Numbered from the stretch's first letter, positions 9,924 to 34,314 are shown. The stretch: 64,000 nt of DNA from Candidatus Thalassarchaeaceae archaeon (GCA_023700255.1 JAJPRD010000003.1:41779-105778); one strand, 5' to 3'. Notes: generated by a model from the sequence alone, not told the origin. Made by a program: numbers and translations.

Positions 9924-12900
9924 ATGAACGATGATAATGATGCGACTGTTGGTGTATTTTCTAATGAAGATTTACTACCAGTTCCTGCGGTGCTAGCAAC
10001 TTTGATGGTGCTTTTCTTAGGGACTAACTATGTCGCGAATGCTGGAATAGAGAACGACGGATATGTAGACCTCTTGATTCTGCCAGTTATCGCAGCTTTT
10101 GCTGCGTTTATTGGTAGGATTTTGAACACATATGGTGAGTCGTTATCTACTTCGAATTTCCGTAATTCATTGATTTCAATTTTCTTCATAGTTTTTTCAG
10201 TTTTAGCAATTGAATTCGGATTATGTTCTCCTCTTCAAGGTATTACTTTCGCATTTATGATGATATCATCTCTACTTTTATCATCACATCAGAGAAATGA
10301 AGAGTCATCAATCTTACTTTCAGTCGTGATCGGATTCCATTTTGCAATTTCCTTTGCAACTAGGTACATTTTAGACGAAACATCTTGGAGCGGTAATCCC
10401 GATGAATTAATTGATGCTGTAAGAAGTTCTACTGGTTCAATTTTCTTTGCATCATGGGCTGCTTCAATCGCTTTGGGAATTCTTGTAACATTGGCAATGA
10501 GGGGCAGGTTAGCTACTCCTGGAACTGGATCTTGGTTCAGAGATATTCCTTCAATTATGCCTAAAGCAGGATTAATTACTGCTGGTTTGGTATTTATTGT
10601 TAATTTAATCCCATTGCTCTGGCTTGGTACTCTCGATAATATCGAATCTTACAATAATCATCATTATCTTGGTTCTGTTTGGGCTATGTTTGCAACAATT
10701 GTAGTTCTATTTGTGTCTTTTTGTAATTCTGAGAGATGGCACGTACTAGGGATCGTTGCAGCATTAAACTGGATCATTTATACCTTAGCTCATTTACAAG
10801 AAATTGGTAACGATTTACCTCTAGCTGTGCTTAATGGAAATGATTCAGTAGGCATATTCACATGGTTTTTATTGGTATTCTGGCTAAATGTTGGCGCTAT
10901 GATGGTTGCTGGTCGCGGATATCTTGGCGATATATCTCCTCGCAGAGATCATTCTGATTTCCGTAAATGGTGGAATCAACATTCATATGGTATAATGGTC
11001 GGTTTTGCACTTTTCATCGCTTTAGCAGTTAGAACTGGATGGAATGTACTTCCAGCTATGAATGCCGCTGGTACAGGTCTTTGGGATATGTCTGGTGGTT
11101 CTGACCCTTGGTACATGAAGAGAGTTGTCGATTATGTCGTAGCGGAAAGAAGTCATCTGATCATCGACTCGGATAGGGCTTATCCTATGATTGCAATAAA
11201 TCCACGTCCTCCTCTATTCTCCTGGTCACTTGCACTTGGAGGAATCCTTCTTTCATGGTTATCAGGTATGGCTATGGAAGAATCTGTTTGGTGGAGCGTT
11301 GCATCTTTACCTGCAATTTTTGGTGCATTAATTGTTCTTCCAATTGCTGGCCTTGCTAGAAAGCTACACAGTAATATGGCTGGTATAGTTGCTGCTTGGC
11401 TAATTGCTCTCATGCCAGGTCATATTAGTCATTCCACATTTGGTCTTGCAGATCACGATGCTTTTGCTATGTTATTCTTAGCTATTGCATTCTATTACTG
11501 GGTTAAGGCAATGGATGAAATAACTAATCAGAGACTATTCACTACTCCAAGTCTAAATCCACTTTATATTATTGCTGGAATAAGAGAAATGTGGCTACGA
11601 AATAGCAAAGTTATGACTAATGCTACTTTATCTGGTGTTTCATTCGCGATTGTAGCCCTTGGCTGGAAAGGTTTCGTTTATGGTCCTGGAATATTATTTA
11701 TTGCATTTGCATTCCAAATATTCTTTAACATGTTCAGACGCAGAGATAGTTTGCCTATTACTGCTGCATCTCTACAGATGATGCTGACTGCATTTGTAAT
11801 ACCACTACCATTTTATTGCTGGCCAGGACTCAATCTATTGTTCGATGCTAGTGGTTTTCAACCAATGTTTTACATAATTGGTTTCACGTTTGCATTAGGA
11901 TGGATTGCATCATCATATCGTGATAGACCTTGGCTATTAGTACTAGTAAGTACTATCGTATTAATAGGGACTATTCTCGTTACACTTAGATTACTACAAG
12001 AGGCTGAGATTTACGATGGTTGGGACATCCTATTCACAGGTGGATTCTATTTCTCTAAGAATAAGATATTCGGAACTATCGGTGAAGCACAGGCACCAAG
12101 TAGAGGAGTTCTTTTCGCATCATATGGTCCAATAGTTTCATTGATAGCAATAATTGTTGCTGTAATGTTGTTATGGCGTGGTGCCCGTAAAGAGAAACAA
12201 AGCCATATTCTTCTTGGATTATGGGTTCTTATCGCGATATACATGGCTTGGTCTGCAGGTCGTTTCATATTCAATGCAACACCGGCAATTTCAGTAGTAG
12301 GCGGAATAGGTATTGCTATGATGTGGAATTATGCTAATTTCTCAGGATTTACTAAAGAGTGGAGGAAATCTGGAATTGGTACTCCAAGGTCTCGCTTCTG
12401 GGCTAACTGGAGCGCTTCAAAGAGACATCCGGGGATTCCTGCAGTCATTCTTGTTCTAATGTTAGTTTGTTCACAGCATATGACCTATGGTATTGACTCA
12501 GGTATTCCTAGAGGTGAACAATCGGCATCTGATGTCGATCAAACTATTCATGATATCACTCCTGATGTATTTAGGCAAGAAATACTTGGTTTATCTCTCC
12601 TCAATAGTGAGAATTATGACGCAAATGGTGATTTATGGTATATGGGTACCTTCGGTCCCGGTTTCAATTCAGGTTCATGGAATATGGCTTATGAGTGGCT
12701 TTCTGAACAAGATACTGATGTTAGTTTCTCTGAACGTCCTGCCTTTGTTTCATGGTGGGATTATGGTTTCCAAGCACTAGCTCAAGGTGAGCACCCAACA
12801 GTTTCTGACAATTTCCAATCTGGCATTCCAAATAGTGGTGCAATGTTGTTATCATCAAGTCAAGAAGATACACTTTCCTTATTCATCACTACACTAGCTC

Positions 12901-15900
12901 AGGGAGATAGAAGATCAACTGATTCATCTAGTTTTACAGATGAATTTAGCGAATTAATGCTAGAAAGTCATATGACTGAAGAGCAATTTGATGAATTTGA
13001 CACCATTATGCGTCTTGGATTTGGGGATTCTAATCTCGTATTAGATCGTTCTATGTCTGTAGTTGCAGTTGATGGTAATTATGAGTTATTAACTGGATAC
13101 AAACTTGGCGATAATGGTATTTCGAATGATACTCGAGAATGGCTAGTTCTGAATGATGGCGATGAATTAAGTAGCCATGGCGATGAAGAATCAGCAATTT
13201 TAGCATTTAATGATGTGCGGAATTCTGTTTCTGAATTAGACAGATATGATGAGGATATAGATGATTTCGCGAATAAAGGTGAATTAGTTGTTCAATATTA
13301 TGATATAGCTGGATATAGATATACTCCTGACTTAATCGAAGATTTTGATGATATATCTACTGGTTTGCACCGTGTTAATGCAAAACTTGCACTAAGTCGT
13401 GCACTACTCTTACAAATATTTGATTCCAATGGTATGAATTCGTTATATAATGATATTTCTACAACTCTATTTTATGATGTTCAAGATTATGAAGGAGCAT
13501 TGGGAGAAATGATATCAAGGAATAATGAGATTAGATACTTTGCAGTAGATAATCGACTTTATCCACTTGGCGGGAATTACTATGAAGATTATAGTTACCA
13601 TCAGGGACAAACTACAGGTATTTTCCATGCACCTACTTCATTATCTGGATTAGATACTGAGACGTATATTTCTTCAGTTTATGAAACACAGAGGGGTGAT
13701 GGACCCATAATTCCACGTACTTCTGCAGAGTATGAAGCAGAGTACCTTAACGATGTAATCCGTCAACAATCAGGTGCTTTAACTGATGTTAATGAGATGA
13801 TTAGAATGGTGGATATTAATTATCAGCATCAACCAGAATTCTTTGACACTATGGTCGCACGAATTTATGTTGGATACGGAACATCTACACTGGGTCTTCC
13901 TGGTGATGCCGAACAACCTGCGCCGCATTTCTATACATCAGGTGCTCCAGGTTCATATTTAGAGAATGCATATCCTCTTCCTGGTGCAATGATGAATCAT
14001 ATGGTTTTATCTAACTGGTATAATCCAGACTGTGAGACTGATGATAACGGTACTCAATTAGATCTAGATTGTTCTAATCTAGGTATTGGAAGCGCTAATA
14101 CTCAAGTTAAGATAATGAAATACTACAGTGGAGCTACTATCGAAGGAACTGTTGAGTTAGATGGTTTAGGACCTGTCCCTAATGCAAGAATCTTAATTGA
14201 ACGTGATGCCTTTAGTGGAGATGAAGTCGAACTAGATGGTCATGTCACAGATAGGGACACGAGAACCTATTGGATTCCTATTGGTACCACTGATGCTGAT
14301 GAAAATGGGGATTATAGTTTCGTTGCTCCAGCGGGTAAAATTCGAGTCACAGCATTCTATGGTGAATCTGACTTAGATTCAGCGCGTGCTCAAATCATGA
14401 CCTCCAATGTTGGTCAATCACTTGGAGACCTTTTCGAAAGTGAGACACCAGGTGTTAGAAGCCTAAATCCAATTACAGGAATTCTAGGTAATGTATCAGG
14501 TTCTACTTGGTTATCTGAAACTATTGTTAATATTTCAGGAACCGATGGTCATAGTAATGGAGAATCTGTTATCTTTGCTCCAATTATTGTTGAACCAGCA
14601 TCATCTACTGGTAGATTAGTTTGGTCAGGGTCAGAAATATTCTCAGGTGATTCTTTAGATAGTGCTACTGTTGAGTTATCACCAGCATGGGATTTAATTA
14701 ATGCCGATCCATATCTTTTGTCAACATCAGACGGGTCAATCGAAGGAGATAATCTTAGATTCACTGGTACTGGAGAAGTAACATTTACTGGTGAAGGTAG
14801 TGTTACTACTTCATCAATAGCAACAATTTCTGATTTCACGGGTAATTATACACAAACAGTATTCAACAACCATAGCTTAAATGGCGATGGAGAGTTTGCT
14901 GGCAGAGGTGTTATTGATGGTATAATCACAGATGATATTCAAGAATTAATGAATTGTGATGTTAATGAAACAATGCCTGAGAATTCTAGTTTATGTATCC
15001 AATCAGATGGCAAATATCTCTTAGATGGTATAGTTAATGCAACTGGTCGATTTACTGCTAACGGCGTTGCATCCTTCACTCAAAAACTAGTACAAGCAAC
15101 TCTAATTGGTTCTGGTGTATTTTCTACAAATACATCTGACTCTACATTGAATAGTTACGGTACTATAAATGGTACTGGGACATTTACTGGTATGGGTATG
15201 TTTAGTGGTTCAATAGTTCAACCAGGTACATTCCACGTAGTGGATGCGATACCAGGAACTTACGATGTAGTCGTAATTTTCAGTGATGGAACACGTGTTG
15301 AAATCAATGATGGTTATGTTATATCTCAACAACCAATCAATTCAATTACTGAAATAGATATTAATGGTGGTTTAATTGAAGGTGATTTAATCGATCAATC
15401 AGGCAATCCATTGATGGCATCAATTATTCTAAGAACTAATGATTCAGTTAGCTCTGATGCAGTTGATGATTGTAGTGTAGTGATATATGCTCCTTGTCTG
15501 ATATCATCTGAGCTATCATGGGATGAGGGTGAATTAATCGGTTCTAAATTAAATTACGGACCAATTATGCCGGGTCATTATATCATAGAAATTGATATGG
15601 ATGGAGACGGTTTCTCCGAAGTATACAGAGAACATATCTTTGATGCTAATGAAGAATCTTCTTTCATATTCCCATCCCCTGTTCCTTTAACAACTGATTT
15701 GACCTTCTCATTAGTAAGAGATGAAAATGGAAGCGACACATTAGTGAATGATTTAAATTTGACACTAAACTTAAAGAATGGTTCAGGCTCAACAGTTAAT
15801 GCTGAATTCAATTCAATGACTAATGATTACTATGCTGAACTAGTACCTGGTGTTTGGATATTAAATTACACACTTTCTGATACAGAGCAATTATGGGAAG

Positions 15901-18900
15901 AAATTGAAGTAGGATTCGATGATTTCTCAACTGTTTACGAATTCCGTACCAGTCAAGTTGTAACTGGTACATTATATTACAATGAAAATTCTACAGATCT
16001 TTCAATTGATGAAAACAAAATCTTGGACTTTGTGCCTATTGTTTTCTATTGGGATGGTTTCAGTACAACAGTCGAAACATCATCTGAAGGTAAATTTTCT
16101 TTAGTTCTACCTGAAGGATCTACAGTAGATGCAATTGCTCAACTTGGCGTTGATTTAAAATTAGTTAATGGTACTCAATTTACTGTAGTTGCAGATATGG
16201 ATGAGATCACTATGGTTGCTCGACCGGGTCAATCAATTACAGGTGCTATCAGTATTAATAGAGCAGATAATTTATACAATGGAGATATTGGTGGTTGGGA
16301 ATCAGTAACTGTAATTGCTGAGAATCTTGATTATGATGTGCAATGGCGTGCTCAGGCTAATGATGGCGGTTTCTTTGAAATGGTTATTCCAAAGGGTAAC
16401 TGGCAATTTTCGGTTGATTCTGATGAATTTATATCAGGTACTAATGTAACTAATGTTGATAACTTTAACAATACGGTTGAAGTTATTATTTATCCCGATG
16501 ACTCATTATTGTCAGTGGATTTCTTCTTAGATAACTCTGGCGATAACAATCTCTCTAATGGTACTCCAGTAAGTTATGATTTCAGCTTAATATCATTAAT
16601 TAATGGTTTAGATTATCATATAAATATTGATGATTCTGAATGGAATGGAACTGGGCATGCAGATGTATTATTAGAACCTGGTATTTATCGAATATCAGTC
16701 GATATATCTGATGCTAATTCAGGTGAACTATTTGGTACAAGGATTCTTACTGGAGATGTCGATTTCCAAGTAGGAATGGAATCTTCAACGATTTCTCGTG
16801 CAATAGGTTTTGATCCTGAATGGCGAGTAAGTATGTCTTTCACAAACGAAAGTGGTGGAGTCTTATCCGAACAACTAGTTAGACTAAATAATGTAGAAAA
16901 TGGATGGGTGCTTTCACGAACAACGAATGTTAATGGTAGTATAGTTGGTTTTATATCTCAGGGTGATTGGATAGTAACTACTGAAACAATGTCTAATGGT
17001 ATCCGTGAAGGACTAAGGGAATTAATTTCCGTATCTTCTGATAATTCTGCAACAAATTTATCTATGTCTACTAGTGAACTTGCAGACGTATCATTCACAT
17101 TGTCCGAAGACGGAAGCAATGATTCCTTAACCGGAATAAGTTTGTTACTAGAGTCCGCAGAGGGTTTGGGATCATTCAGTATTGAAGCTACAAACTCTAG
17201 TGGATTAACTGAAATTAATTTAGTAACAGGGGAATGGATAGTTTCTCTTAATTATACTGACGATGGTAAGAGATGGCTAGTCGATGATTATACGATTTCA
17301 GTAGATATAAGTGATAATAATCATTACAACTTGACTGCTAATCTATATGTTGCACTGACAGGTACTGTATATTGGGATCTAAATGATAACAACGCATCTA
17401 ATGTTGGTGAAGGTGTTTCAGATGTAACTATGCTATTCACAAATGATATTTTGTCAAATAACACTATTGAATCTGGAGATAATGGTGACTGGGAGCTATT
17501 TGTTCCTGCAAATACAGTATGGCAGATTAATACCTCTTATGATGGATTTGAGAGCATACAACAAAGTGTATCTGTTTCGGATATGTCTAATGAAGTTCTT
17601 CTTGAATTAACTGCTGGTCTAGTAGACGTTTCAGGTAATCTATCTTACGACCTCGGAATAGAAAGCATCTCAGTAGATGATTTAGTCCTTACAATAATAC
17701 CTACTGAAGGTCTTGTTCGCGATTCGGTGACTCCACAGTTATTGTATGGTGATGATGGTTGGTTAGGTGAATGGTCTGCTCAATTAGAGCCAGGTCTTTG
17801 GATAGTCAGTGCTAGTGTCCCTACTGAAGATTTAGTTATCATGGGTCTATTAAATGTAGATGTGGTTGATGGTGGGAATCTAGATATGGAATTGACAAAA
17901 GGTGGTCTCCTTGATGTAAATACTGAATGGTTAGACTACGATGGAGTCTCTCATAATCTTGGAGAGATTGTCGATGCAAATATAGTCATTGATATCGGAT
18001 TTGGAATGAAGTGGGTCCAGGATGTTGAAACAGATGGTTCTTTGAATTTACTTTTACCTAATGGTAATGTTGAATTTTCAAGTGATTTTGAAATTGAACA
18101 AAGAGGAATTATTATGGAATACATAGCGGGTAGAGGAGTAGATGTTTATTCTGGTCAAGAATCTCCAGTATTATCTCTACTGTACAATAGGGTATCAAAT
18201 CATGAAATTACAATTAATACTTTGAATCTTACCTCTGGTCATGATAGTTATGTTGGTTCTATGAGTGATGTGAATCTTGTAGTTAATGCAACTGATGGTT
18301 TTGAACCTGTTGAATTTACTCTTGAAGTCAACTATCTTGGTCATGAATCATATGATCTTTACACTGTAGGGGGTCTTGTTTCTGGTACAGATAGCGCTGA
18401 ATGGAGCTTACAATTCGATAATGGTTCAGGGGAATGGAATACTTCCACTCAGTTCGAGGTAGGTCTCGATAATAGTCAAATGTTTAATGATTTGAATATT
18501 CGAGTCGTTGCTCCTAACCAATCTGTTGCTCATGCATTTGAAGATGGTCATAAAATTACAATTAGTATTTCTACGCAAGATGGTTATCTAGAAACTCATG
18601 AATTAATAGTTAGGATACCTCAATTACATGGATTTGAATTATCCACTCCTATGGATGATATATATGGTGTATATCCTGGTGAGTTATTGATCATACCAAT
18701 TGAAATTACTAATTCAGGAAATGGTGATGAGAAGTATGAATTTGAATTTGATGATTCAGAATTACCAGATGGTTGGAGTAGGACTGGTCCTACATCTCAT
18801 ACATTAGGTGGATTTGTTAGTACTATTCACAGCGTAACAGTTGTTGCTCCTGAAGATGTATCATCTAGTGATCAATTCTCGATATATGTTTCAGTTACTG

Positions 18901-20718: not shown

Positions 20719-20795
20719 ATTGATGAGATTTAATCAAACATTAGTTATGCACGGGCTCCCAAATTGGTTAAATCCGCATTCTAATACGGTAAAAC

Positions 20796-23700: not shown

Positions 23701-25001
23701 GGACATGGGATTTCAGCGGACAACCTAGAACATCAGCTGAATATACATTTACAATATGGGCATCAGATTCAGACTTTTGTTTGAGTGTAATTGATGAATG
23801 TGATGCAGTTACAATGACTCTAACTATTGATAACTCTAATTCCATACCTTTCATTAGTTTATTATCTCCTCAAGATGGTGAAAGACTTTCAGTTTCAGAT
23901 ACAACAATTAACGGAGTTGCGAGAGATAATGATGGTTCAGTTTCTAGAGTAGATATAACTGTAAGAGATATTTACAATGGCGGGATAATTGTTCATCAGC
24001 AGTCAGTAACTGATTTTGAAGATAATGGTGCTTGGTCAACTGATTGGGACCCTACTATTCTTCAACATGACTTTGAGTATGCTATCGACATAATGTCGTA
24101 TGATGGTTATGACTTCAGTGAGATGAGTACAATCACTATTACTGCAGATAATCCCTCAGATGCGGGTAATAATCAGCCTAGTTTTAATTCAGACGGGTGG
24201 TCTCAAGAAATAGTACTATACTGTGAAATTTCTTCTCAGTCCCAAGATAGGTGCACTAAAGGTGAAATTGATTTAAATCAATTTTTCTCTGACTTAGATA
24301 GCGGGCAAGATTTGATTTTATCTGTTTATGATGACTCTAATGATGATTCTGATGATGATTATGCACTAGTAATTAATGTAGGTCAAGATGGAATTGGTAT
24401 CTATGACCCTATATCTATGTTCTTTTATGATAGTGATATGAGCACTTGGACACTTGAAAATGTCATTTTCGTGGCGACTGATCCATTCGGTTCAAAAGAA
24501 ATTTCTATTCCAGTTACTTTCAGAGTCATTGGAGTCACTTTTGAGATTTATAATCCAGAAGTGACAGTCATTCAAGATGGTGAAATGATATTTTTCTCAG
24601 GAATAGGTCTTCCTGGAAGGACGGTTGAAGTTCTCATAAAGAATAGCCCTGTGAATCTGACTATAGTCAATGCTGATTCATCTTGGGAAGTAGGCATTCC
24701 ATCTTCTAGATTCAGCGATGGTCCAGTGACCCCTGTATTCAAATTTGGAGATGAATATTATGAAAGTAGTGTTAAAATTTCTGTAGGTGACTCTGATGAA
24801 GGTTTATCTAAACTTCTATGGCTTGCAATTATGTCAATTCTAACTCTCGGTCTATTAGGTGCAGCATTTGTATATTTCTTTGTAGAAATAGATGATGGCG
24901 AAAGTACTGATGATTCATCCGAAATAATAGAGGAATCTGAAGGATGGATTTGGGATGAAAGTTCGAATGACTGGATAGAAGATCCAGATTATGAATCTTG
25001 A
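20796..25001 (+). CDS. Surface protein with parallel beta-helix repeats and Ig-like domains, type-I anchored
   Basis: 1,401 aa with signal peptide 'FLVFLMLSSVLIALVGPATPVMA' and PbH1-like repeats 'NNEITTDTGTGITAYDGANVELHNNEISG...GITVQSSKAYIHHNEIG'. An Asp/Cys-rich stretch reads 'CSDGIDNDGDLTIDDDDLDC'. Ig-like repeats include 'ITISSPSDGSTWSDGSVTFEGTAYD' and 'ISLLSPQDGERLSVSDTTINGVARD'. The C-terminal TM 'LLWLAIMSILTLGLLGAAFVYFFV' is followed by an acidic Trp-rich tail. Confidence 0.75.
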   Translation: MSKRRARSSFLVFLMLSSVLIALVGPATPVMANNETTAGTITTSETWSGTHQLTGDVTIASGAKLIINPGTTVIFPNGTYLDVRGNICAGVSSCGASGDASIANKITLRWTDPSNSSAIGECKGMMQGTQEIQIEDASCFEGMLIRSSIDLSETGFRHITIDDAWGIPYYIDSISRWRYGAMVIDGASPTLTQMRFTNINTSSVLTTNLAQPTFEGGTYVAGNDGKSGVGGSAVQIYGSGTQISPLVMNSPFFIGTDNGCGNNDGGRPTLWAEGTFIEINDATVNTGDYGFSLTSSSGLITNSDINVNCNGIDINGIKAVQGVEFTIEVGNNEITTDTGTGITAYDGANVELHNNEISGVGERSGITVQSSKAYIHHNEIGPIGGWNGLWLTGTFDVIAEYNTISETAKTPIQVGEPSSSGPAPSASRLHFSNNTVSVNSPGTCSSFQYWGGEYTCPAVSLFRSGVTLYDNEFSMGGDADGIRAIGGLLDVQRNLFNTPGTGAVIRNYDSGFANTQQYGSLGFFSLNTWNGVETAYNVTKSSVTVQSEFIPSSPPGNFPVILDWPDQEAWPANGFQGSIMPTQISECASCANLTPINFPLAISMDNNSTVFTFANLSNVDTSKIFIKSQPTQYAVQVRRAEMVRFQTLVDGMKVENTNVLIEDALGNDLYSLYTDQDGYTPWFALASDSHLDFRGLAGGDNPDGFADDEYEDSCSDGIDNDGDLTIDDDDLDCDYTTGTRELSRYYFTAYRFGFGYARSDFVIQDVTYQDTINLLNSGPSVSVVQNNGHSFRKIVNFTGSAHDGQLAGFYATDSLAQWDQKGYIHSIEVRDPFTSEWESAGLGVDDSGAEPGTVTRFNHPFNSWHYSFDMSNYQETDYTFEFRSFDGIDYSPIISRTIKLNAAPPIITISSPSDGSTWSDGSVTFEGTAYDQYGCPIDCSNDIGEVYFYISGPNFEGTTPTSGGADWSWTWDFSGQPRTSAEYTFTIWASDSDFCLSVIDECDAVTMTLTIDNSNSIPFISLLSPQDGERLSVSDTTINGVARDNDGSVSRVDITVRDIYNGGIIVHQQSVTDFEDNGAWSTDWDPTILQHDFEYAIDIMSYDGYDFSEMSTITITADNPSDAGNNQPSFNSDGWSQEIVLYCEISSQSQDRCTKGEIDLNQFFSDLDSGQDLILSVYDDSNDDSDDDYALVINVGQDGIGIYDPISMFFYDSDMSTWTLENVIFVATDPFGSKEISIPVTFRVIGVTFEIYNPEVTVIQDGEMIFFSGIGLPGRTVEVLIKNSPVNLTIVNADSSWEVGIPSSRFSDGPVTPVFKFGDEYYESSVKISVGDSDEGLSKLLWLAIMSILTLGLLGAAFVYFFVEIDDGESTDDSSEIIEESEGWIWDESSNDWIEDPDYES

Positions 25002-25012
25002 TGATTCAATTA

Positions 25013-25061: not shown

Positions 25062-27596
25062 ATGACTAGTATGGGAGTGGCCACTCGTCCCGGTGTCCAA
25101 GAGAGGATTCTCTTACATCTTAGAGACTATGTGGAACACTCTGGGAGAGTTGAAGTACCTTTTGCTCTTTCTCAAATGGGCATAGCCAATGCTGTAGCAA
25201 TAGCGCGATCAAATGTCCCTAGGGCTATATCTGGCATGAGGGAGCAGGGACTTCTTGTTGAGAAACAGGCTCATGTTACTGGTGTTTCACGTAAAAGAAA
25301 AGCATATTTTCTAACTGATGATGGGATTAAAGTTGCCAATGGTATTTGGGATAAAGTTAGTGCTCAACCAGTACGCTTGAAACATTCAGATGGTCGTATA
25401 GATAATGTATCACTTGTTAATGCATTAGAATTAACTAATTTACCTCTAAGACATGTTGATATTTTGAGGTATATTGACGATAATGGTAGTATTGATTTAT
25501 CGATACTTTCTGCTGAATTAATTGAGCGTGATTTATCTAAACATATTGAAAAACAGTTGGTGACATCTTTCAATGATCTCCCTCGAACCAGGAAGTTCTT
25601 TGGTAGGGAGAAAGAAGTTGATGACATGGTAAAATTGCTTGAAGTGAGGTCCTCTTCTATACTTGTGCCGGGGATAGCTGGAATAGGAAAAACCGCCTTA
25701 GCCGGTAAAATACTTGAACGTTTTACTCATGAAAGAAATCTTTTATATCACCGCTGTCAAGACTGGGAAGGGTCGAGATCATTCCTTGAAGCTACTGCTG
25801 AATGGCAATCTACAATGGGTTGTAACGATTTATCTGATTATTTATCAGCTACTTCAATCCCTCAATCTAATATAGCTATAGATTTGATATTAAAAGGTCT
25901 AATTAATTCACCTAGTTTAATTGTAATTGATGACTTACACAAGGTGGGTGATGAAACTTTAATTACTATCTTAAGAGGCATTTGTATGAAAATACCTGAT
26001 CTTGATCAGGTCGGTGTAGTTATGTTTTCTAGGTCGTTCAGAATGGTGGTTCCAGAGAAAGATTCAGAGGGTAAAATCTTAACTTTAGTAATGCCATTAG
26101 ACGGTCTAGATAAAGAGTCCAGTAAACAAATTCTTTCATCTATGCCAGATATGGATTCCTCCGAATTCCTTCATATTTATTCTCTTTCACGTGGTCATCC
26201 ACTAGTTTTAGAATTAATCAATAGAGGAAGTGTTGGTGGGACATTCCATGCTACTTTAGAGACATTTGTCGAGAAAGAAATTTTTAGCCGTTTATCTGGT
26301 CCTCAGAAAAGACTTCTTGGAGCTATTGCGGTATTTAGAGAGCCTATGCCTTTAGACGCTCTCAGTGAATTAGATGCAGCGATTGATCTTTTAGATGAAT
26401 TGGTCGAAAAAGGATTAGCGCGACAGGCGGATAGTGAAAATTATGATGTTCATGACTTAGTTCGTGAATTCTTAGTCTTATCAATGGAGCAAAATTTACG
26501 TAATGAATTACATAGTAATGCAGTTAATTGGTATAGGGACCGTAAAGAGAGTGCAATGGATAGAATAGAGTTTATTCATCATCTTCATAATTCTGATCAA
26601 ATTGATGAGCTAACAGTGGTATTATCAACCGAGGGTCATACATTAGTCAAAGCAGGCCATACTGAACTCTTGGGGATATTAAGATCATTAGATAGAGAAG
26701 GTTTTGATTCGAAATCGTGGGTTATTGTTCGAGAACTTAGAGGAGATATTTTATCAATTCAAGGCAGGTGGAATGATGCTGAAAAAGAGTATGATTCTGC
26801 TATACCGATAGCTCGTAAAAATAAGCAAAACAAAGAACTTGCTAGGCTGCTATCATCTCGCGCTGATATAGCAGTTAAGAGAGGAGCCATGGATGATGCC
26901 TTAGAGCTGCACAGACAGGCTCTTGAAATCCAAATAAGTACTAGAGATGCAGTTTCTGCGGCTAGATCTTACAACAATATGGGTTATATTTTCCGTCGCC
27001 GCCGTGATAATAGGCACGCTCTAGAAGTTTATGGCAATGTAGAAGAATTGTTAGAATCTGAAGATAATCCCGAATTATGTGATTCACGTATCCGACTTGC
27101 ATCTGCTTTTCTAGAAATGGGTGAATTAGATCGTGCAAGAGACCATGCAATGTTAGCCCATGATGAAACTAAAAACAATGGACAAGATACCTTACATGCC
27201 AGAGCAAGAGCAGTATTGGGTAGGTATTATGCTAAAATAAAAGATAATGATTTAGCTATGCTACATTATTCAGGTGCTTTAGAAATACTTTCTGAACAAG
27301 CAGATCCACATAGCGCTGTAGAAGTTGAAATGTTACTGGGTCAAGTTCTTACTGATGCAAGTAGGAAAGAAGAGGCCTCTGAACATTATTTGAAAGGGCT
27401 CGCTTTAGCCGAAGCTAATGATTTCCGCCATTTGAAAGGTGAACTTTTAGCACGCCTAGGTGAAGTTGAGACTGACAGGTCACAAAGAATGGAATATCTT
27501 CAAAAAGCTCTATCTGTATTTAGGGAATTAGGGGCAAATGATCGTATGAAAGAAGTTCAAAACTCGGTTCATCGAGTAGTGATGGGTCATAGATGA
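25062..27596 (+). CDS. wHTH - AAA/STAND-like ATPase - TPR transcriptional regulator
   Basis: 844 aa. The N-terminal winged-helix-like region reads 'GIANAVAIARSNVPRAISGMREQGLLVEK...RKAYFLTDDG'. 'FFGREKEVDDM' precedes Walker A 'GIAGIGKT', and Walker B is 'LIVIDDLH'. The C-terminal approximately 300 aa carry TPR-like repeats ('ARSYNNMGYIFRRRRDNRHALEVY', 'AMLHYSGALEIL'). Confidence 0.75.
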   Translation: MTSMGVATRPGVQERILLHLRDYVEHSGRVEVPFALSQMGIANAVAIARSNVPRAISGMREQGLLVEKQAHVTGVSRKRKAYFLTDDGIKVANGIWDKVSAQPVRLKHSDGRIDNVSLVNALELTNLPLRHVDILRYIDDNGSIDLSILSAELIERDLSKHIEKQLVTSFNDLPRTRKFFGREKEVDDMVKLLEVRSSSILVPGIAGIGKTALAGKILERFTHERNLLYHRCQDWEGSRSFLEATAEWQSTMGCNDLSDYLSATSIPQSNIAIDLILKGLINSPSLIVIDDLHKVGDETLITILRGICMKIPDLDQVGVVMFSRSFRMVVPEKDSEGKILTLVMPLDGLDKESSKQILSSMPDMDSSEFLHIYSLSRGHPLVLELINRGSVGGTFHATLETFVEKEIFSRLSGPQKRLLGAIAVFREPMPLDALSELDAAIDLLDELVEKGLARQADSENYDVHDLVREFLVLSMEQNLRNELHSNAVNWYRDRKESAMDRIEFIHHLHNSDQIDELTVVLSTEGHTLVKAGHTELLGILRSLDREGFDSKSWVIVRELRGDILSIQGRWNDAEKEYDSAIPIARKNKQNKELARLLSSRADIAVKRGAMDDALELHRQALEIQISTRDAVSAARSYNNMGYIFRRRRDNRHALEVYGNVEELLESEDNPELCDSRIRLASAFLEMGELDRARDHAMLAHDETKNNGQDTLHARARAVLGRYYAKIKDNDLAMLHYSGALEILSEQADPHSAVEVEMLLGQVLTDASRKEEASEHYLKGLALAEANDFRHLKGELLARLGEVETDRSQRMEYLQKALSVFRELGANDRMKEVQNSVHRVVMGHR

Positions 27597-27613: not shown

Positions 27614-27631
27614 TTTTGTTTAAATTTTTTT
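27614..27631 (+). terminator. Oligo-T tract (TTTTGTTTAAATTTTTTT) downstream of the regulator gene
   Basis: A T4, T3, T7 series begins 18 nt after the stop at 27596. Archaeal intrinsic terminators are oligo-T runs. The tract overlaps the stop of the convergent MBL gene. Confidence 0.4.
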
Positions 27632-28418
27632 AACCAGCAATTATTTTAAAATTGGGACCATCTTGTCCGGAAATAAATATTGACCCTTCAAAATCATCTG
27701 ATATTTGCATCAAAACTTCACTTTCAGCTATATGCGGAGCATTATTTTTATCAGATAAATGACATAACACTATAGTTTTAAGATCTGGAGTCAGAATTTC
27801 ACTAAGTATATCTGCTGTTTGGCTATTCGATAAATGTCCTCCTCTACCTGTGATTCTTCTTTTCAATGAATCAGGATATGGTCCTTGCATCAATCGTTGA
27901 TGGTCGTAATTAGCTTCAATGGATATATGTGAACATCCTTTCAAGTGCCTTTTTAATTCTACAGTTGCTTCTCCTAAATCTGTGACAAAACCTGCTCTTA
28001 TACCATCTCCATTACTTACAATTAATGCAATATTTTCTGCATCATCATGAGGTACTGGAATCGGTAAAACACTAAGATTTCTACTAATTTCTAATCTTTC
28101 TAAGTTTGCGAATGTTCTGCATTCAGATATTGGATTCCATCCCATTTTTATTGCGGTTTCAGTATTTGAGTAGAGTCTTGCATTCCACTTTTCCGATGCT
28201 CTCAGAGCAGATTTCGAATGGTCACCATGGTGGTGAGTTACAATGATTGCATCTATGGTTTTGGGGTCAATACTTATTCTTGACAATCTCAATTCAGTTT
28301 GTTTAAGTGAGAACCCACAATCAATAAGAATTTTTGAATCATTCGATACTATAAGCGTAGCGTTACCTCTACTCCCTGACCCTAGGTGAGTAATCTCTAA
28401 TCCCATATCAATCATCAT
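27630..28418 (-). CDS. Metallo-beta-lactamase-fold hydrolase
   Basis: 262 aa with the 'IIVTHHHGDH' zinc motif, 'LIDCGFS' and a C-terminal 'LCHLS'. Confidence 0.8.
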   Translation of the reverse strand: MMIDMGLEITHLGSGSRGNATLIVSNDSKILIDCGFSLKQTELRLSRISIDPKTIDAIIVTHHHGDHSKSALRASEKWNARLYSNTETAIKMGWNPISECRTFANLERLEISRNLSVLPIPVPHDDAENIALIVSNGDGIRAGFVTDLGEATVELKRHLKGCSHISIEANYDHQRLMQGPYPDSLKRRITGRGGHLSNSQTADILSEILTPDLKTIVLCHLSDKNNAPHIAESEVLMQISDDFEGSIFISGQDGPNFKIIAG

Positions 28419-28580: not shown

Positions 28581-28590
28581 AGGAGGTGAT
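28581..28590 (+). promoter_or_regulatory. Perfect 10-nt Shine-Dalgarno AGGAGGTGAT
   Basis: Read directly, with a 3-nt spacer to the ATG at 28594. It is the full complement of the conserved 16S rRNA 3' tail (AUCACCUCCU). Confidence 0.65.
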
Positions 28591-28593
28591 ACC

Positions 28594-31500
28594 ATGAGGC
28601 GCAAACAAACAGCTCTACTTATGACAGTACTAATTCTCTCAAGTTTAGCCTTTGTTTCTCAAACTCGTCCTCAGGCTCCTGTAGAAAATACCAACCCTGG
28701 AGATGCTGCTGGAGGTGGACCTCCAGTAACCGATGAAGATGGTGATAGAATACCTGATTTTCATGAATCGGTATTATTTGGAGAAGATATCATGTATGAT
28801 ACTGGCTCCGAAATATTACAAATTTTCGGATTAGATTCTAAAAATGGAACAGATAATATGTCTGATCATGACAATGACGGTGCTAGCGCTTTACTAGAAT
28901 ATTGTTGGCCCTATACTTTAGATAAATGTTTCACTGATAGAGTTGCTTTAACTGGTAAACCTGCTGAACTAAGTGATTCAGGATTCCGCGAATGGCTTGA
29001 CCCTAGAGTTGCAGATACAGATGGTGATGGGCTTCCTGATGGCTATGAAATCTATATGTGCACAGAAGGTGGTTTAGGATACCTTAACACTACTAGTGCT
29101 TGGAATTGTCTTTGGTTTGATCCCTTAGACCCTAGTGATATGTGGGAAGATATTGATCGTTGCTATGATTTTACATTTGGTTGTGGAGATGGTTTTGATG
29201 TCGATCGTAACGGAGTCATTGATCTGACTGAAATGTATTCGAATTCAGAGGAGTATATTTTTGGTGCACCAGATGATTGGATTACTGAAAGAGACGGTCT
29301 CTGGTGTTTTGGTGAGATTAATTTATTGATGCCTGGATCCTGTCAAACAGCAGTAGAGAGACAAACCGGAGATGGTTGGCTTGGTAGCGACCCGACTGAA
29401 TCTGATTCCGATTACTATTCATGGGCTGAAGTTATTTCTGTAGGCCTTGTTGTGCCAGGTGATGGTATACCTGATGGTTGGGAAGTACATTATGGGTTAG
29501 ACCCCCGAAATGCTAGTGACTCAATAATTGATACTGACTTAGATGGATGGGATTTAGATAGGGATGGTTATGTGATACCAGATACGTCAGTCGCAACATC
29601 AAGTTGGGGTGAATCATTCAGTAATTATGAAGAATATATGATTCATTATGATTCAGGTATTTCAGTCACACCTGGATTACGCAGCATTGAAATTTCTAAT
29701 TCAGAGGGTATATTTTCAACTTTCGATCAATCAACTGACCCTCAATTAGTTGATGCTTCAGTTCACACTATAATACCCGATAATCAAAGAGATCGTTTAA
29801 TCATAGGTTCGAAATATGGAATAACAATATTTGATCCTTTCAATGAGTTATCTACTCTCCAAGAATTACCTGCTGGTGTTGAACTTAAATCTATGATGAA
29901 ATGGTCTAACAATAATGGGGATTATCTTGTAATGTCTACGAATTATGGTGTATCAGTTATAGAAATTCAGAATGGCATTCCATTAATTGAATCATTTTCG
30001 ATTGGAGCTGATGAATCTAGTGTATCCATTAGTTCAGTCAATGAAATGGTAGTACTGAATACCGGTAGTAGTAATTTAGACCTAATGATATTTTCAAACC
30101 AAGATGTTTGGACAATATCAATTGCTGATTTATCAATTAGTACACCAGTTCATTTAGATTCCATATCAGAGTTGTTAGTGAACAATGCCGCCAAGGTCAA
30201 TACTGCATTACACATGGAAATGGATGGACGTGGTCCATTACTATTGATTGGTACTGATGGTGGTTTAGTTGCTTGGAATACTACTGATGGTTCAGACTCA
30301 ACTGGAGATCCATGGTGGGTTTTTAATAGGGAGAATTCAGAAAATTTTGTTAAAAAAGCGGATTTACTTAATGTTTCTAAATCCGCAATTGTCAATATAA
30401 TCACTCCAGCAGGGCCAAAAGATTCCTCAGGTAATTATGAATTAATTACTGGTGCTTGGATTGGCACCGCAGGAGGACTTCATCTAGTTGATATCGAGAA
30501 AATAATCTCTATGCCAATTCTCGCTTTCGATTCGGATAGAATGTGGAAAGAAGAAAATTGGTTGTCTGGTTCTAATGACATCCATTCAATATATACTATC
30601 AACAATCAAATCATTGTTGGGTCAAGAGATGGTACATGGGTTCTAGATGGAGGGTACCAAGGTGTCACTGGTATTTCAGATAATCAAACATATTTACCCG
30701 GTTTAGTAAGTTCACTAGTTACCCTTGAGTCATCTACTTCTGTACATTTGTTCGCAGGAATCTCACCTGGCAGATATATGAATATAATGCCAATTGATCC
30801 TCGATCATCTGATTCTGATCTTGATGGTATGCCAGATGGTTGGGAATTTATTCATGGTTTAGATCCTACTGATCCATATGATAGAGATCGTGACGCAGAT
30901 GCAGATGGTGTACACTATAATCCTGAAATCGGCGAAGGTATTGATAGAAGTTGGACTAATCTTGATGAATTCCGATTTATTACTAATTCAGAAAATGGAT
31001 TTAATGGTACTGATCCAAGAAATACAGATACTGATGGTGATGGCCTTAGTGATGGTGAAGAATATTGGGGTTGGTTTACGGAATCTACAAATTTCGATTG
31101 TCATTACCTTAATGAAGAATACATTTGTGATGAAGATGTAGGTATATTATCTCAGGCAGTTCACTTAGAAGGTTGGCTAGGTTCTGGGGCTGGTGGAGGA
31201 ACAGATGGACCCACTGATCCTACTAATATTGACACAGATAATGATGGTATGCCTGATGGATGGGAAATCTCTAATCGTCGCTGGATTGGTGATGTCTATA
31301 ATGGAGGTAATTTGTGGACATTAGATCCTATGGATCCTAGTGATGCAGATGGTGATGCAGATAATGATGGGTTATCAAATCTTTGTGAATATAAATGGTC
31401 TAACCTTTTACAAGTTGTTTCTCAAGAAGGACTTCCATCTCACGGTGAAACATCAGATGCCGCTTTAAATTGGACAGCAACTGATCCAAATAATATTGAT

Positions 31501-34314
31501 TCAGATGGTGATTCTCTCCCCGATGGTTGGGAAGCAAGATATTCCTGTTCTTGGTCAGTAAACGCAGCTGGCATTAATCCTATGAATGGTTCTGATGCTC
31601 TTAATAATCCTGATGGTGATGGCTATGACGTTAATCACAATGGAGTTCTTGAATTAGAGGAAAGTCTTGTGAATTGGATGGAGTTCCATTGGAGATCAGA
31701 CTTGATATTCTCTGATCGTACTGATAATGGCATACCTTTCCCTGATAACTTCACTACCCTACTATTCAATGATACTTGGGAAAATTTTGCAGAGGGGTCA
31801 TTTGGTGAATATGCAACTGATTCGTATAATAATTTAATCAATGGAACTACTGAGATCGATATTGGCTCAGGAAATCCACTAAATGCAGATTCAGATAATG
31901 ATGGTATGCCTGACGGATGGGAATTTTTCCATGCTCGATGGAGTCTCTTTGATGGTTCATGGAGTTTGAATCCTGTCAATGAACAAGATCGCGTTGGAGA
32001 TCCAGATGGTGATGGAATGAATAATTGGGAAGAATATAATGTGATTTCTGGTGAATTTACAGAAATAAACTCTCTAATAACTGTCCCTCAATTTTACTTA
32101 CTCTATTTTGGAGGTGAGTACCTCCCTAACCCTTGGTTATCTGCTGAATCTGCTAGTTCGTTTGGTTCATTCCTAACTCCTGAACAAATTAATTTAACTG
32201 GTATGACCGCTGATCCAAATAATCCTGATACAGACGGTGATGGACTTTTAGATGGAATAGAGTTAATCTTTACAAAATGGAATTCTACTGATAATGTTTG
32301 GACTCTGAATCCTCTAGTGCCTAACGACGGAAACTATGATTCGGATAATGATGGTATTTCTGATCAAGTTGAGCTCAATTTGACTCTCAATAATCCATTC
32401 AATGGTGGTTTATCTCCTCCTGACGCTCCTCGCTTATGGGAAGAAGCCGAATATCTTGATCCATCTGAAGCCGAGAATCGTGTATATCGGATATTATTCA
32501 ACAAAGAAGGTAGAGCTCAACTCGCCTTACAACAGTTCCAAGATTGGCAAGGTGGTTCTTCGGCGAAACCTCTTCTCCAAGCATTATTTGGTATATCTGA
32601 CCCAACCTCTGTAGATACTGACAGAGATGGTATGAGTGATGGATATGAATACTGGTTTACTGAGTGGAACCTTGAAGATAATAAATGGGAAATGAATTTA
32701 CTTACTGATACTGATATTTCTTTTGATTCGGATGATGATTCATATGATTGTGATAATGATGGAGTGATTTCCCCGTCCGAAAGATTTGATAATTTAGCGG
32801 AATTTGAATCCAGAGTATATGGGAAAAAATTAGCAATAGATAGTATACCTAATGGAACTGGGCTTGTATCTTATGGAGCTGATGCAGTTAATGCATATAT
32901 CGATGAGCAGGGGATGAGTTATTCTGCAGCATTCAGTCAATTATATATTACATTCAGTACAAAATCTCTACTTTCTTCTGAGAAGTTAGGATTGATTAAT
33001 GAGATCAATAGTAATAATTTCAATATGAGTTTAGCTGGAATAAGCGATCCTACTGATTCAGATTCAGATAGGGATGGCATGCCTGATGGTTGGGAATACT
33101 GTTTCTCAGTTTATGGTGAGTATTTACCAATTAACGATTATAGATGGTCAATGAATCCAATAAATCCTCTTGATGTTAATTATGATCCAGATGCAGATGG
33201 CTGGTATGATAGGCAGTGGCTTGACAACTCTGCTACTCAAGGTACTTGGGATAATCGTCAGTTTACACCTTTTGGTTTAGAAAACCAAATAGATAATGGC
33301 ATACTTGGTTTATTCTATGGTAATTTAATGGAATACGATAATGGCACACATCCAATGGATCCAGATTCAGATGATGACTCAATGGTCATGGAACCTGTTT
33401 TCACAAATGGAGAAGTAACCGGGTATGTACGGAATATGAATCTAAGTGATGGTCGAGAAGTTTTCAAATATGGTACAAACCCTCTCGATAATGATACAGA
33501 TGGAGATATGATGCCTGATTTCTATGAATATTATAGAGGTTGGAATGAAACAAATGATAATTGGTCATCTTATCTTAAAATACAAGTTCAATGGGAACAA
33601 ATTTCATCCAATAATTGGAAACCAGTAGATTTATCTGATGGAATTATTTCACGTCCAGTCTTAGATTGGGTATGGTTTACTCACGATGCTACGAATGCAG
33701 ATGATGCTGGTCAAGATGCAGATAAAGATGGTGGATGGGATTGTTCAGGCGGTAATTGTGTCTATGAAAAATATAATAATTTCCAAGAATATTATGGTTT
33801 AGTTAATGCATCATTATCTTCCCCAACTCTTGTTCGCCAGGCTTTATTGAATGATTGTTCTGGAAATTATGTTGAAGAATGGTGGCAGTTAAGAGAATCT
33901 TTACTTGGAACCTGTTCTGGGTCTTCTGCACTGGCATCTAACTATTTTAGAATGTATAAAATTAATAATAATGATCAACTGTTTGCATTAATCATTGACG
34001 ATAAAGATGTTGATTATCAATACTTAGATACAACTGATGATGAAACCTTGTGCAGTGGTGAATGGACTGATTCATACGAAAGATTTGCAGGTGATCAATA
34101 CCATCTCCCTAATACCGGACTTGGTGAATATGTCTTTAGTTGGTGGGTTCTAGATATCGACGGCGATCAAATAGCTGATGGAACAGACCCTACGAACTGG
34201 GATACAGATGGCGATTGGCTCAATGACTATTTTGAAATTGAAGATGATATGATAGATGGGATCAGAGGCAACAGTGCATCTCCAATACGTTATGACGATA
34301 GAACTACGTCCTAG
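28594..34314 (+). CDS. Secreted TSP3-repeat megaprotein with a central beta-propeller (Reg_prop-like) region
   Basis: 1,906 aa with signal peptide 'ALLMTVLILSSLAFVSQTRPQAP' and about 25 DxDxDG motifs by eye ('DTDGDGLPDGYE', 'DSDLDGMPDGWE', 'DTDNDGMPDGWE', 'DSDRDGMPDGWE'). Propeller-blade-like repeats lie around nt 29660-30800 ('LLIGTDGGLVAWNTTDG', 'AWIGTAGGLHLVDIEK', 'IIVGSRDGTWVLDGG'). There is no C-terminal TM. Confidence 0.8.
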   Translation: MRRKQTALLMTVLILSSLAFVSQTRPQAPVENTNPGDAAGGGPPVTDEDGDRIPDFHESVLFGEDIMYDTGSEILQIFGLDSKNGTDNMSDHDNDGASALLEYCWPYTLDKCFTDRVALTGKPAELSDSGFREWLDPRVADTDGDGLPDGYEIYMCTEGGLGYLNTTSAWNCLWFDPLDPSDMWEDIDRCYDFTFGCGDGFDVDRNGVIDLTEMYSNSEEYIFGAPDDWITERDGLWCFGEINLLMPGSCQTAVERQTGDGWLGSDPTESDSDYYSWAEVISVGLVVPGDGIPDGWEVHYGLDPRNASDSIIDTDLDGWDLDRDGYVIPDTSVATSSWGESFSNYEEYMIHYDSGISVTPGLRSIEISNSEGIFSTFDQSTDPQLVDASVHTIIPDNQRDRLIIGSKYGITIFDPFNELSTLQELPAGVELKSMMKWSNNNGDYLVMSTNYGVSVIEIQNGIPLIESFSIGADESSVSISSVNEMVVLNTGSSNLDLMIFSNQDVWTISIADLSISTPVHLDSISELLVNNAAKVNTALHMEMDGRGPLLLIGTDGGLVAWNTTDGSDSTGDPWWVFNRENSENFVKKADLLNVSKSAIVNIITPAGPKDSSGNYELITGAWIGTAGGLHLVDIEKIISMPILAFDSDRMWKEENWLSGSNDIHSIYTINNQIIVGSRDGTWVLDGGYQGVTGISDNQTYLPGLVSSLVTLESSTSVHLFAGISPGRYMNIMPIDPRSSDSDLDGMPDGWEFIHGLDPTDPYDRDRDADADGVHYNPEIGEGIDRSWTNLDEFRFITNSENGFNGTDPRNTDTDGDGLSDGEEYWGWFTESTNFDCHYLNEEYICDEDVGILSQAVHLEGWLGSGAGGGTDGPTDPTNIDTDNDGMPDGWEISNRRWIGDVYNGGNLWTLDPMDPSDADGDADNDGLSNLCEYKWSNLLQVVSQEGLPSHGETSDAALNWTATDPNNIDSDGDSLPDGWEARYSCSWSVNAAGINPMNGSDALNNPDGDGYDVNHNGVLELEESLVNWMEFHWRSDLIFSDRTDNGIPFPDNFTTLLFNDTWENFAEGSFGEYATDSYNNLINGTTEIDIGSGNPLNADSDNDGMPDGWEFFHARWSLFDGSWSLNPVNEQDRVGDPDGDGMNNWEEYNVISGEFTEINSLITVPQFYLLYFGGEYLPNPWLSAESASSFGSFLTPEQINLTGMTADPNNPDTDGDGLLDGIELIFTKWNSTDNVWTLNPLVPNDGNYDSDNDGISDQVELNLTLNNPFNGGLSPPDAPRLWEEAEYLDPSEAENRVYRILFNKEGRAQLALQQFQDWQGGSSAKPLLQALFGISDPTSVDTDRDGMSDGYEYWFTEWNLEDNKWEMNLLTDTDISFDSDDDSYDCDNDGVISPSERFDNLAEFESRVYGKKLAIDSIPNGTGLVSYGADAVNAYIDEQGMSYSAAFSQLYITFSTKSLLSSEKLGLINEINSNNFNMSLAGISDPTDSDSDRDGMPDGWEYCFSVYGEYLPINDYRWSMNPINPLDVNYDPDADGWYDRQWLDNSATQGTWDNRQFTPFGLENQIDNGILGLFYGNLMEYDNGTHPMDPDSDDDSMVMEPVFTNGEVTGYVRNMNLSDGREVFKYGTNPLDNDTDGDMMPDFYEYYRGWNETNDNWSSYLKIQVQWEQISSNNWKPVDLSDGIISRPVLDWVWFTHDATNADDAGQDADKDGGWDCSGGNCVYEKYNNFQEYYGLVNASLSSPTLVRQALLNDCSGNYVEEWWQLRESLLGTCSGSSALASNYFRMYKINNNDQLFALIIDDKDVDYQYLDTTDDETLCSGEWTDSYERFAGDQYHLPNTGLGEYVFSWWVLDIDGDQIADGTDPTNWDTDGDWLNDYFEIEDDMIDGIRGNSASPIRYDDRTTS

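Follow-up and report, generated by a model that had tools for sequence, protein, structure and literature searches.

The stretch of DNA analysed here, 64,000 nucleotides (nt) from a Candidatus Thalassarchaeaceae archaeon of Marine Group IIb, Poseidoniales (below, the window), contains at positions 9924-34314 a run of six open reading frames (ORFs) that begins with the gene of a giant oligosaccharyltransferase (OST), AglB. The reading that we favour, and hold to be moderately probable, is that this segment belongs to the conserved core genome of Poseidoniales, and that its notable element is AglB itself, a giant and probably self-glycosylating enzyme whose CnaB-like stalk has a membrane anchor at either end. 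An earlier description (the original prediction) treated the six ORFs as a module for the production of envelope proteins. The ORFs that it delimited are real, five of them lie on the plus strand, and the spacers are 33-175 nt; its domain assignments agree with the Pfam and NCBIfam searches, with the exception of a propeller in ORF6.

The gene aglB (ORF1) starts at position 9924 of the plus strand and encodes 3,174 amino acids (aa). Its STT3/AglB catalytic core, aa 345-1393 (10956-14102, +), consists of a transmembrane (TM) domain and an external domain. The Pfam model STT3 (PF02516) matches aa 379-705 with 51.1 bits (cut-off 24.5), and the catalytic motifs are GGSDPWY (with D394), D510-H511-D512, TIGE at aa 718-721, and WWDYG at aa 944-948 (nt 12753-12767); D394, DHD, TIGE, and WWDYG are all invariant in 30 giant AglB homologues. 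The STT3 match and WWDYG bear out the N-glycosylation catalyst proposed earlier for ORF1. In the alignment to AglB of Archaeoglobus fulgidus (AfAglB, 3WAJ), GGSDPWY stands opposite GGNDPWY, D510-H511-D512 opposite NDHH, and WWDYG is matched. The score with NCBIfam TIGR04154 (archaeosortase-A-system-associated STT3) is 161.7 bits, short of the cut-off of 450. Foldseek relates the AlphaFold2 (AF2) model of aa 1-1200, with a predicted local distance difference test (pLDDT) value of 69, to STT3A, Stt3, AglB (AfAglB), and PglB with probability 1.0. Judging from its motifs, the AglB of the window is probably an active OST. The core also contains a sequon, N784-A-T (12273-12281), within an invariant FNATP found in every one of 29 giant AglBs; its role may be structural rather than that of a glycosylation site.

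The core is flanked on both sides by additional parts. On the N-terminal side, an additional membrane domain (aa 1-344; 9924-10955, +) comprises about 8-9 helices; a hydropathy scan gives 8 segments for it, and AF2 predicts helices at residues 14-330, mostly with pLDDT 75-93. Neither this domain nor aa 1001-2000 show a Pfam match at E<=0.1. Downstream is an extracellular stalk of about 1,750 aa (aa 1394-3143; 14103-19352, +), built of tandem β-sandwiches similar to CnaB and CarboxypepD_reg. The AF2 model of its aa 1401-2600 is all-β with pLDDT 84, and its Foldseek matches are TIE, PitA, RrgB, Cna-B, and SdrD-B, i.e., CnaB-type pilin shafts and B-repeats. The protein ends with a TM anchor, seen by hydropathy at aa 3144-3162, and a basic cytoplasmic tail with the sequence KGRSRRPGAPF, these parts and the stop codon occupying 19353-19448 (+); the ending ...RRxxAPF is conserved in 30 sequences, with the last F invariant.

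Sequon analysis of AglB reveals 46 N-x-S/T sites (z-score, z, +2.7), 32 of which are within aa 1401-2600 (2.7 per 100 aa); for the stalk, 22.4 sequons are expected and 39 are present (z 4.1). When shuffled separately, the extension is enriched in 11 of 11 proteins (eight Poseidoniales orthologues and three more distant, tier-2 homologues described below) with z 2.4-11.7, or 6-11.7 for tier 2 alone, and the N-terminal half shows no enrichment. In the stalk, N-x-S/T is 1.4-3.5 times as frequent as the reversed control motif [ST]-x-N, the same ratio being about 1 for the β-helix protein encoded by ORF3, and in 22 alignment columns half or more of 29 sequences have a sequon; conserved stalk sites lie near aa 1527, 1740, 2203, 2434, and 2824 (P0002 numbering). 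An artefact of composition or of NG turns is ruled out as the source of the stalk excess by the within-segment shuffles, the reversed motif, and the removal of NG[ST].

The original prediction expected this richness in two other proteins, encoded by ORF3 and ORF6, which are indeed very large (1,401 and 1,906 aa) and predicted to be exported, in line with its description. Compared with composition, both are at expectation: ORF3 has 12 sequons vs 15.8 expected (z -1.1), and ORF6 24 vs 20.8 (z +0.8); no enrichment is seen in eight of eight β-helix orthologues either (z -1.0 to +0.1). The excess is instead in AglB's own extension, and the sequon-rich polypeptide is the stalk, not the neighbouring megaproteins. 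AglB would glycosylate its own stalk, either in cis or from one copy to another, and the stalk would be a heavily glycosylated surface component, membrane-anchored at both ends. In a related metagenome-assembled genome (MAG), SIMO Bin 19-2, one COG1287 gene is annotated among 1,251 genes, therefore the same AglB is probably the general N-glycosylating OST of the cell, too.

In an exhaustive HMMER search of 1.84 billion representative sequences, the core (aa 331-1130) finds two tiers of homologues. Tier 1, the giant AglBs of Poseidoniales, has core identity of at least 47%, a length of about 3,150-3,230 aa, and an STT3 core starting at aa 320-390; both families of Marine Group II (MGII), MGIIa and MGIIb, contribute to the hundreds of 90% clusters that have a single ORF of 3,145-3,340 aa, for which 'STT3 domain-containing protein' is the fullest annotation. 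The enzyme behind giant AglB is known, and this version of it is abundant in databases. Tier 2 has more than 100 representatives, core identity of 27-37%, a length of 2,000-2,800 aa, and the STT3 core near the N-terminus (aa 5-130); its sources are MAGs labelled Thermoplasmata, Methanomassiliicoccales, and Thermoplasmatota. These proteins, recorded as STT3 or 'carboxypeptidase regulatory-like domain-containing' proteins, possess WWDYG and TIxE, have many CarboxypepD_reg, SdrD_B, and NOMO-like Pfam matches, and close with a TM segment and a basic tail.

The general plan, i.e., an STT3 core, β-domains, a TM segment with a basic tail, and an excess of sequons, is common to the window's AglB and the tier-2 giants (P0137, P0270, P0184, etc.). 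The differences are in core identity, in the domain of about nine helices at the N-terminus, which is confined to tier 1 and has no counterpart in tier 2 or in canonical AglB, and in the neighbourhood, as the S8/β-helix/STAND set found downstream of the window's aglB is seen in none of the three tier-2 loci inspected (L012-L014). In L012, from non-Poseidoniales Thermoplasmata, an 8,356-aa ORF and a 1,077-aa Ig/PKD protein are followed directly by a 2,449-aa AglB, all on one strand (1-9762). In L014, a 2,747-aa tier-2 AglB is followed, after 1 kb, by a phage-sheath-like gene (Phage_sheath_1, Phage_sheath_1C; 19222-20649).

With AfAglB-L of A. fulgidus (PDB 3WAJ, 3WAK, 5GMY, and 7E9S) and STT3/PglB (GT66, GT-C), the window's AglB shares the STT3 domain, the Asp of external loop 1 (EL1), D-x-D/H, TIXE of EL5, and WWDYG. 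It is about 3.6 times longer than AfAglB (3,174 vs 868-875 aa, about 15% identity), adding the N-terminal membrane domain, the stalk of about 1,750 aa with its sequon excess, and the second, C-terminal anchor. The structures that match the stalk model best, those of CnaB-type shafts (RrgB, PitA, BcpA, Cna B, SdrD B, and TIE of Bacillus anthracis), are likewise tandem CnaB-like rods; however, they are bacterial and sortase-anchored, are not glycosylated by an OST, and are about 10% identical to it. Eukaryotic NOMO is a rod of tandem Ig/prealbumin-like domains in the lumen of the endoplasmic reticulum, with a single C-terminal TM segment, and is not fused to OST. It resembles the giant AglBs in the string of prealbumin/CarboxypepD_reg-like β-sandwiches followed by a C-terminal TM segment, and tier-2 AglBs weakly match the Pfam models NOMO1-like_2nd and NOMO_5th, although these matches may reflect the shared fold alone, and no NOMO model matched the window's AglB. 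In Haloferax volcanii, the S-layer glycoprotein, AglB, and ArtA combine an N-glycosylated, C-terminally membrane-associated envelope protein with a dedicated, protease-like membrane enzyme for its maturation; here, there is no PGF-CTERM motif and no archaeosortase, the protease is of the S8 type, and the acceptor-rich polypeptide is within AglB.

Synteny was analysed in 10 GTDB species genomes (with the subtilase as query), 80 metagenome loci (with the STAND alignment as query), and 4 further contigs. The order AglB-S8-β-helix-STAND is observed in every related locus covering these genes, in the 10 genomes down to 33-50% identity; these loci include Poseidoniaceae (MGIIa, assigned by the L010 clade with the NCBI label 'Candidatus Poseidoniaceae'), where AglB is about 33% identical. 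The 80 metagenome loci, all MGIIb with STAND 71-100% identical, retain the six-gene order wherever they reach those genes. They also retain orf156, orf111, Pcp-NUDIX, an RNA-binding protein, orf259, and DnaJ downstream, and have PurD and CarS fixed upstream; as the order runs on through flanking housekeeping genes, the six-gene order in MGIIb is no better conserved than its surroundings. Three long MGIIa contigs show the order orf596-like(-), CarS (inverted), PurD, AglB, S8, β-helix, STAND, orf596 being a membrane-protein gene. The run common to MGIIb and MGIIa hence comprises four of the six genes together with orf596, CarS, and PurD, and its edges differ from those of the proposed module. 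Of the synteny suggested earlier, the conserved order itself is seen, but not its specificity to the module, since the housekeeping genes are equally kept and the last two genes, encoding a metallo-β-lactamase-fold (MBL) hydrolase and a TSP3-repeat protein, are lost in MGIIa. There, STAND is followed by convergent genes of 156 and about 730 aa in place of the MBL and TSP3 genes (L095 27834-29546, L096 28056-29591, L097 28087-29684, L008 17032-19478, and L009 12956-15609), the larger one with a faint match to DUF7289. The N-termini of this pair resemble class-III (pilin-like) signal peptides. CarS is flipped between the families, being on the plus strand in MGIIb (window 7787-8479) and on the minus strand in MGIIa (L095 7860-8549), still beside PurD and AglB.

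The second gene of the conserved four encodes a membrane-anchored S8 subtilase of 410 aa (19486-20718, +). It starts with TTG at 19486, preceded by a Shine-Dalgarno-like (SD-like) sequence GGGGTGGAT at 19475-19483, and the gap to the aglB stop is 37 nt. As called initially (ORF2, 427 aa, from GTG 19435), the gene overlapped aglB by 14 nt, as the original prediction had it; however, nine orthologues start at the equivalent of residue 15-18 or so, 21-90 nt past the aglB stop. Translational coupling of aglB and S8 by overlap was discarded, as homologues do not back the overlapping GTG. The Peptidase_S8 (PF00082) score is 128.9 bits, and D116, H153, N247, and S331, that is, the triad and the oxyanion Asn in subtilisin order, are invariant in nine orthologues. 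A cytoplasmic N-terminus of about 60 aa, with conserved LLPEP...AID, is followed by one TM segment, hence the protease domain faces outward. Assignment to mycosins, S8 proteases associated with type VII secretion systems (TIGR03921), was rejected at 96.1 bits, below the equivalog cut-off of 278.75. The protease contains 0 N-x-S/T sequons vs 3.4 expected (z -2.1) and its orthologues 0-3, probably by chance. Farther along, the window encodes a larger subtilase of 1,604 aa (56579-61393, +; Peptidase_S8, 145 bits, plus CARDB) with hydrophobic segments near the C-terminus, so that the S8 protease adjacent to AglB is not the sole exported subtilase nearby.

The third gene, ORF3 (20796-25001, +), encodes the 1,401-aa β-helix surface protein. 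Besides a right-handed β-helix (Pfam Beta_helix, 44 bits) and two Ig domains of the Big_7 family (43.6 bits), it comprises a signal-like segment at the N-terminus, a TM segment at aa 1341-1359, and an acidic cytoplasmic tail; its middle has no Pfam match at E<=0.1, and no relative with a solved structure was found by sequence. The tail contains the motif GWIWDESSNDWIEDPDY (nt 24942-24992). Nine orthologues from both MGII families (the β-helix genes of L005, L006, L008, L010, L011, L095-L097, and the window) share its generalised form, GW[ILMV]WD-x5-W[IV]xDP[DN][YHF], essentially without variation, with G, W, W, D, W, and D invariant and the acidic flanks variable. A role as a general sorting signal in the window is ruled out by its single occurrence there.

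The wHTH-STAND NTPase-TPR protein of 844 aa (ORF4; 25062-27596, +), a cytoplasmic, putative transcription regulator, is encoded between the 1,401-aa and the 1,906-aa genes, in accordance with the earlier description. TPR_12 matches four stretches with 62.1 bits (cut-off 30.1) and AAA_16 is marginal (32.9 vs 32.6); NB-ARC (22.4 vs 23.5) and HTH_Crp_2 at aa 15-69 (24.5 vs 27) are below their cut-offs, although the weakly matched HTH region is the best-conserved part of the protein. Walker A (GIAGIGKT) and Walker B (DD in VIDD) are invariant in five orthologues. No other gene of the set is as conserved as STAND, which has 50-54% identity to MGIIa vs 33% for AglB. It shares with regulators of the MalT/AfsR type the P-loop STAND NTPase followed by TPR, and putatively a DNA-binding domain, and matches their models partially (37-47 bits vs equivalog cut-offs of 537-1,430), while its candidate HTH is N-terminal and winged-helix-like.

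Upstream regions suggest how the four genes may be transcribed. A candidate B recognition element (BRE)/TATA box AACGGTTATAACA (9856-9868, +) lies about 65 nt upstream of aglB, and an SD match, GGTGAT, is at 9913-9918; both occur at equal distance before aglB in L005, and MGIIa loci share another conserved box, ATTAAAAGAGG. The β-helix gene has a candidate TATA box TGGTTAAATC about 30 nt upstream (20765-20774, +), seen at equal distance in L005 and L011, and no SD match upstream; its transcript would be leaderless or short-leader, starting from this box. The spacer between the β-helix and STAND genes is 13-60 nt across loci and 13-16 nt in MGIIa L010 and L095. SD-like sequences with no room for a promoter precede S8 and, in MGIIa, STAND. 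The AT-rich boxes before aglB and the β-helix gene, together with SD-like sequences before S8 and STAND, fit aglB-S8 and β-helix-STAND units, hence AglB, S8, β-helix, and STAND could form one or two transcription units. The best-supported pair is that of β-helix and STAND, given the spacer of down to 13 nt and the invariant motif in a variable cytoplasmic tail; the tail motif could be a putative ligand for the TPR domain of STAND.

Published transcript data are available for SIMO Bin 19-2, where genes 303-320 follow the order of the window and the six orthologues are genes 305-310 (Damashek et al., 2021; PMC9723583). Coverage in Table S3 of that study is informative in two of seven samples, FN66 and FN71, which is too thin for co-expression analysis. 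Normalised coverage (FN66/FN71) is 0/0.08 for PurD, 0.35/0.38 for AglB, 0.18/0.16 for S8, 0.16/0.18 for β-helix, 0.19/0.18 for STAND, 0.01/0.05 for MBL, and 0.10/0.07 for TSP3. All six orthologues are thus transcribed in the sea, MBL being 4-15 times below the four core genes, and the data are compatible with a four-gene unit. In the same study, aglB is enriched when genus O1 is active (log2 fold change 2.05, adjusted p 0.062), and the β-helix gene shows a non-significant log2 fold change of 1.9.

The two remaining ORFs are the 262-aa MBL-fold hydrolase (ORF5; 27630-28418, -; Lactamase_B_2, 63 bits) and the secreted TSP3-repeat protein of 1,906 aa (ORF6; 28594-34314, +; TSP3_bac, 37.4 bits, cut-off 25). 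ORF6 contains 9 strict and 13 loose Ca-binding repeats D.D.DG..D..E. Its TSP3 repeats were described correctly, whereas the propeller is not confirmed: five G[ST]xxG[ILV] repeats suggest it, but there is no Pfam match at E<=0.1 in that region. The claim that this gene has the strongest ribosome-binding site of the window is correct, since at none of the other gene starts, 32 in all, is the anti-SD match as long as GGAGGTGAT at 28582-28590. The MBL gene is absent after STAND in MGIIa L008, L009, and L095-L097, and the TSP3 protein is absent from MGIIa loci; both are family-specific neighbours in MGIIb, with no evident functional tie to AglB.

Among the other genes of the window, a second secreted TSP3 protein (2398-5445, +; 1,015 aa) has 12 strict Ca-binding motifs and sequon z 2.4; its SD, GAGGTGAT, is the second longest, hence the two strongest SDs of the window belong to its two TSP3 genes, while most genes have none. 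One ORF at 35246-36250 (+) combines a pyroglutamyl peptidase (Peptidase_C15) and NUDIX, and is missing from some MGIIb loci (L017, L020, L021, and L057). At about 37% GC, the window carries marker genes of archaea, namely those for CDP-archaeol synthase, archease, ArcS/DUF5591, and an S15 that has the S13_N domain; the TARA scaffold L072 (TARA_B110000116_G_scaffold20910_1) is 93-100% identical to it at the protein level across the region. No glycosyltransferase genes are found within the 64 kb, and tRNA and Rfam scans of the same 64 kb yield no RNA genes.

These results make the original prediction, one co-regulated module of six genes that makes, N-glycosylates, and proteolytically matures Ca-binding envelope proteins of 1,401 and 1,906 aa, very unlikely. 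The order is indeed held in all MGIIb loci covering the six genes, but unrelated housekeeping genes on both sides keep theirs in the same loci, and MBL and TSP3 are unlinked in MGIIa. Next to the adjacency and short spacers stand the opposite strand of MBL and a coupling overlap that hangs on a start codon with no homologue support; all six genes are transcribed, MBL at the 4-15 times lower coverage given above. Export is predicted for both large proteins, which have 12 and 24 sequons, yet neither exceeds composition, nor do the eight β-helix orthologues. Large proteins with signal-like or anchor segments take up about 37 of the 64 kb, so that such neighbours are expected beside AglB. The giant AglBs of other Thermoplasmatota (L012-L014) lack the S8, β-helix, and STAND neighbours. 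What persists is the order AglB-S8-β-helix-STAND, kept in all covering loci, and not a module-specific boundary or sequon-rich substrates; three of the outcomes that the original prediction had itself listed as speaking against it were found. An antiviral pair of STAND and MBL, similar to Avs1 (AVAST type 1) and located next to AglB by chance, has a practically negligible probability and was rejected, as both the family models and the conservation pattern fail. MBL does weakly match Avs1a (NCBIfam E 1.9e-4, PADLOC E 1e-4), but over a metal-binding motif of about 55 residues common to all MBL proteins, and with 20 bits vs a cut-off of 420; STAND-TPR architecture is similar to that of Avs sensors, but STAND matches no PADLOC Avs model, and its N-terminus is a putative HTH rather than a nuclease effector. 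Unlike genes of defence islands, STAND is a fixed core gene that both families possess, with 71-100% identity across 80 loci, and it has no MBL beside it in MGIIa.

A narrower envelope unit of four genes is possible, if rather doubtful. AglB, S8, and the β-helix protein would form a complex via their cytoplasmic segments, and the TPR domain of STAND would read the β-helix tail and adjust transcription of the unit. The order of the four is kept across both families at 33-54% identity, although PurD, CarS, and orf596 are co-conserved, so that synteny alone is non-diagnostic. Conserved cytoplasmic motifs beside variable sequence (AglB ...RRxxAPF, S8 LLPEP..AID, and β-helix GWxWD..W.xDP.Y) and transcript coverage, similar for the four and different from that of PurD and MBL, are in line with such a unit; the β-helix-STAND spacer of 13-60 nt is as well, but the β-helix gene apparently has its own promoter. 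The association of the four co-occurs with the tier-1-specific N-terminal domain of AglB and is absent from tier-2 loci, a contrast that rests on three loci.

The reading that we favour, a conserved core-genome segment with a self-glycosylating AglB, has several points weighing against it or against its parts. Synteny fails to separate AglB, S8, β-helix, and STAND from the co-conserved PurD, CarS, and orf596. The transcript data come from just two informative samples, and in these the unrelated CarS reaches similar coverage; SIMO Bin 19-2, the source of the single-AglB count, is an incomplete MAG. The DK/MI motif, the element that binds Ser/Thr at position +2 of the sequon, has no clear assignment: the conserved segment SQEDTxSLFI, located 35-45 residues past WWDYG with nearly invariant D982 and I988, fits neither DxxKxxx(M/I) nor MxxIxxx(I/V/W) cleanly, and AF2 pLDDT is below 50 there. 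The TM topology of AglB derives from a simple hydropathy scan and AF2; the activity of AglB and the glycosylation of its stalk are both predictions, and the TPR-tail interaction is pure inference.

A bolder version, unlikely in our estimate, would extend to Poseidoniales and the wider Thermoplasmatota: an OST fused to its own principal substrate, with the self-glycosylated stalk as a major building block of the glycocalyx (a substitute for the S-layer), wired in MGII into the four-gene unit. The membrane subtilase might then trim or release the stalk or the β-helix protein, and the wHTH-STAND-TPR protein might sense envelope status by binding the GWxWD...WxxDPxY tail of the latter.

Textbooks describe AglB as a stand-alone enzyme, with about 600-1,000 residues. 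A literature search on AglB and oligosaccharyltransferases in MGII and Thermoplasmatota found no description of the giant enzyme, subscription journals being largely outside the search, so that the result amounts to no more than absence of evidence; a second search, on MGII S-layers and glycosylation, turned up nothing relevant. MGII are among the most abundant archaea of the surface ocean; to our knowledge, none has been cultured, and the cell envelope has never been seen.

Generally, in highly collinear genomes such as these, conservation of gene order alone is no proof of a functional module. AglB of Poseidoniales represents a class about three times the textbook size, present order-wide, with relatives of 2,000-2,800 residues in other Thermoplasmatota and with a conserved excess of sites on its rod; these sites point to the glycosylation enzyme itself as a major surface glycoprotein.

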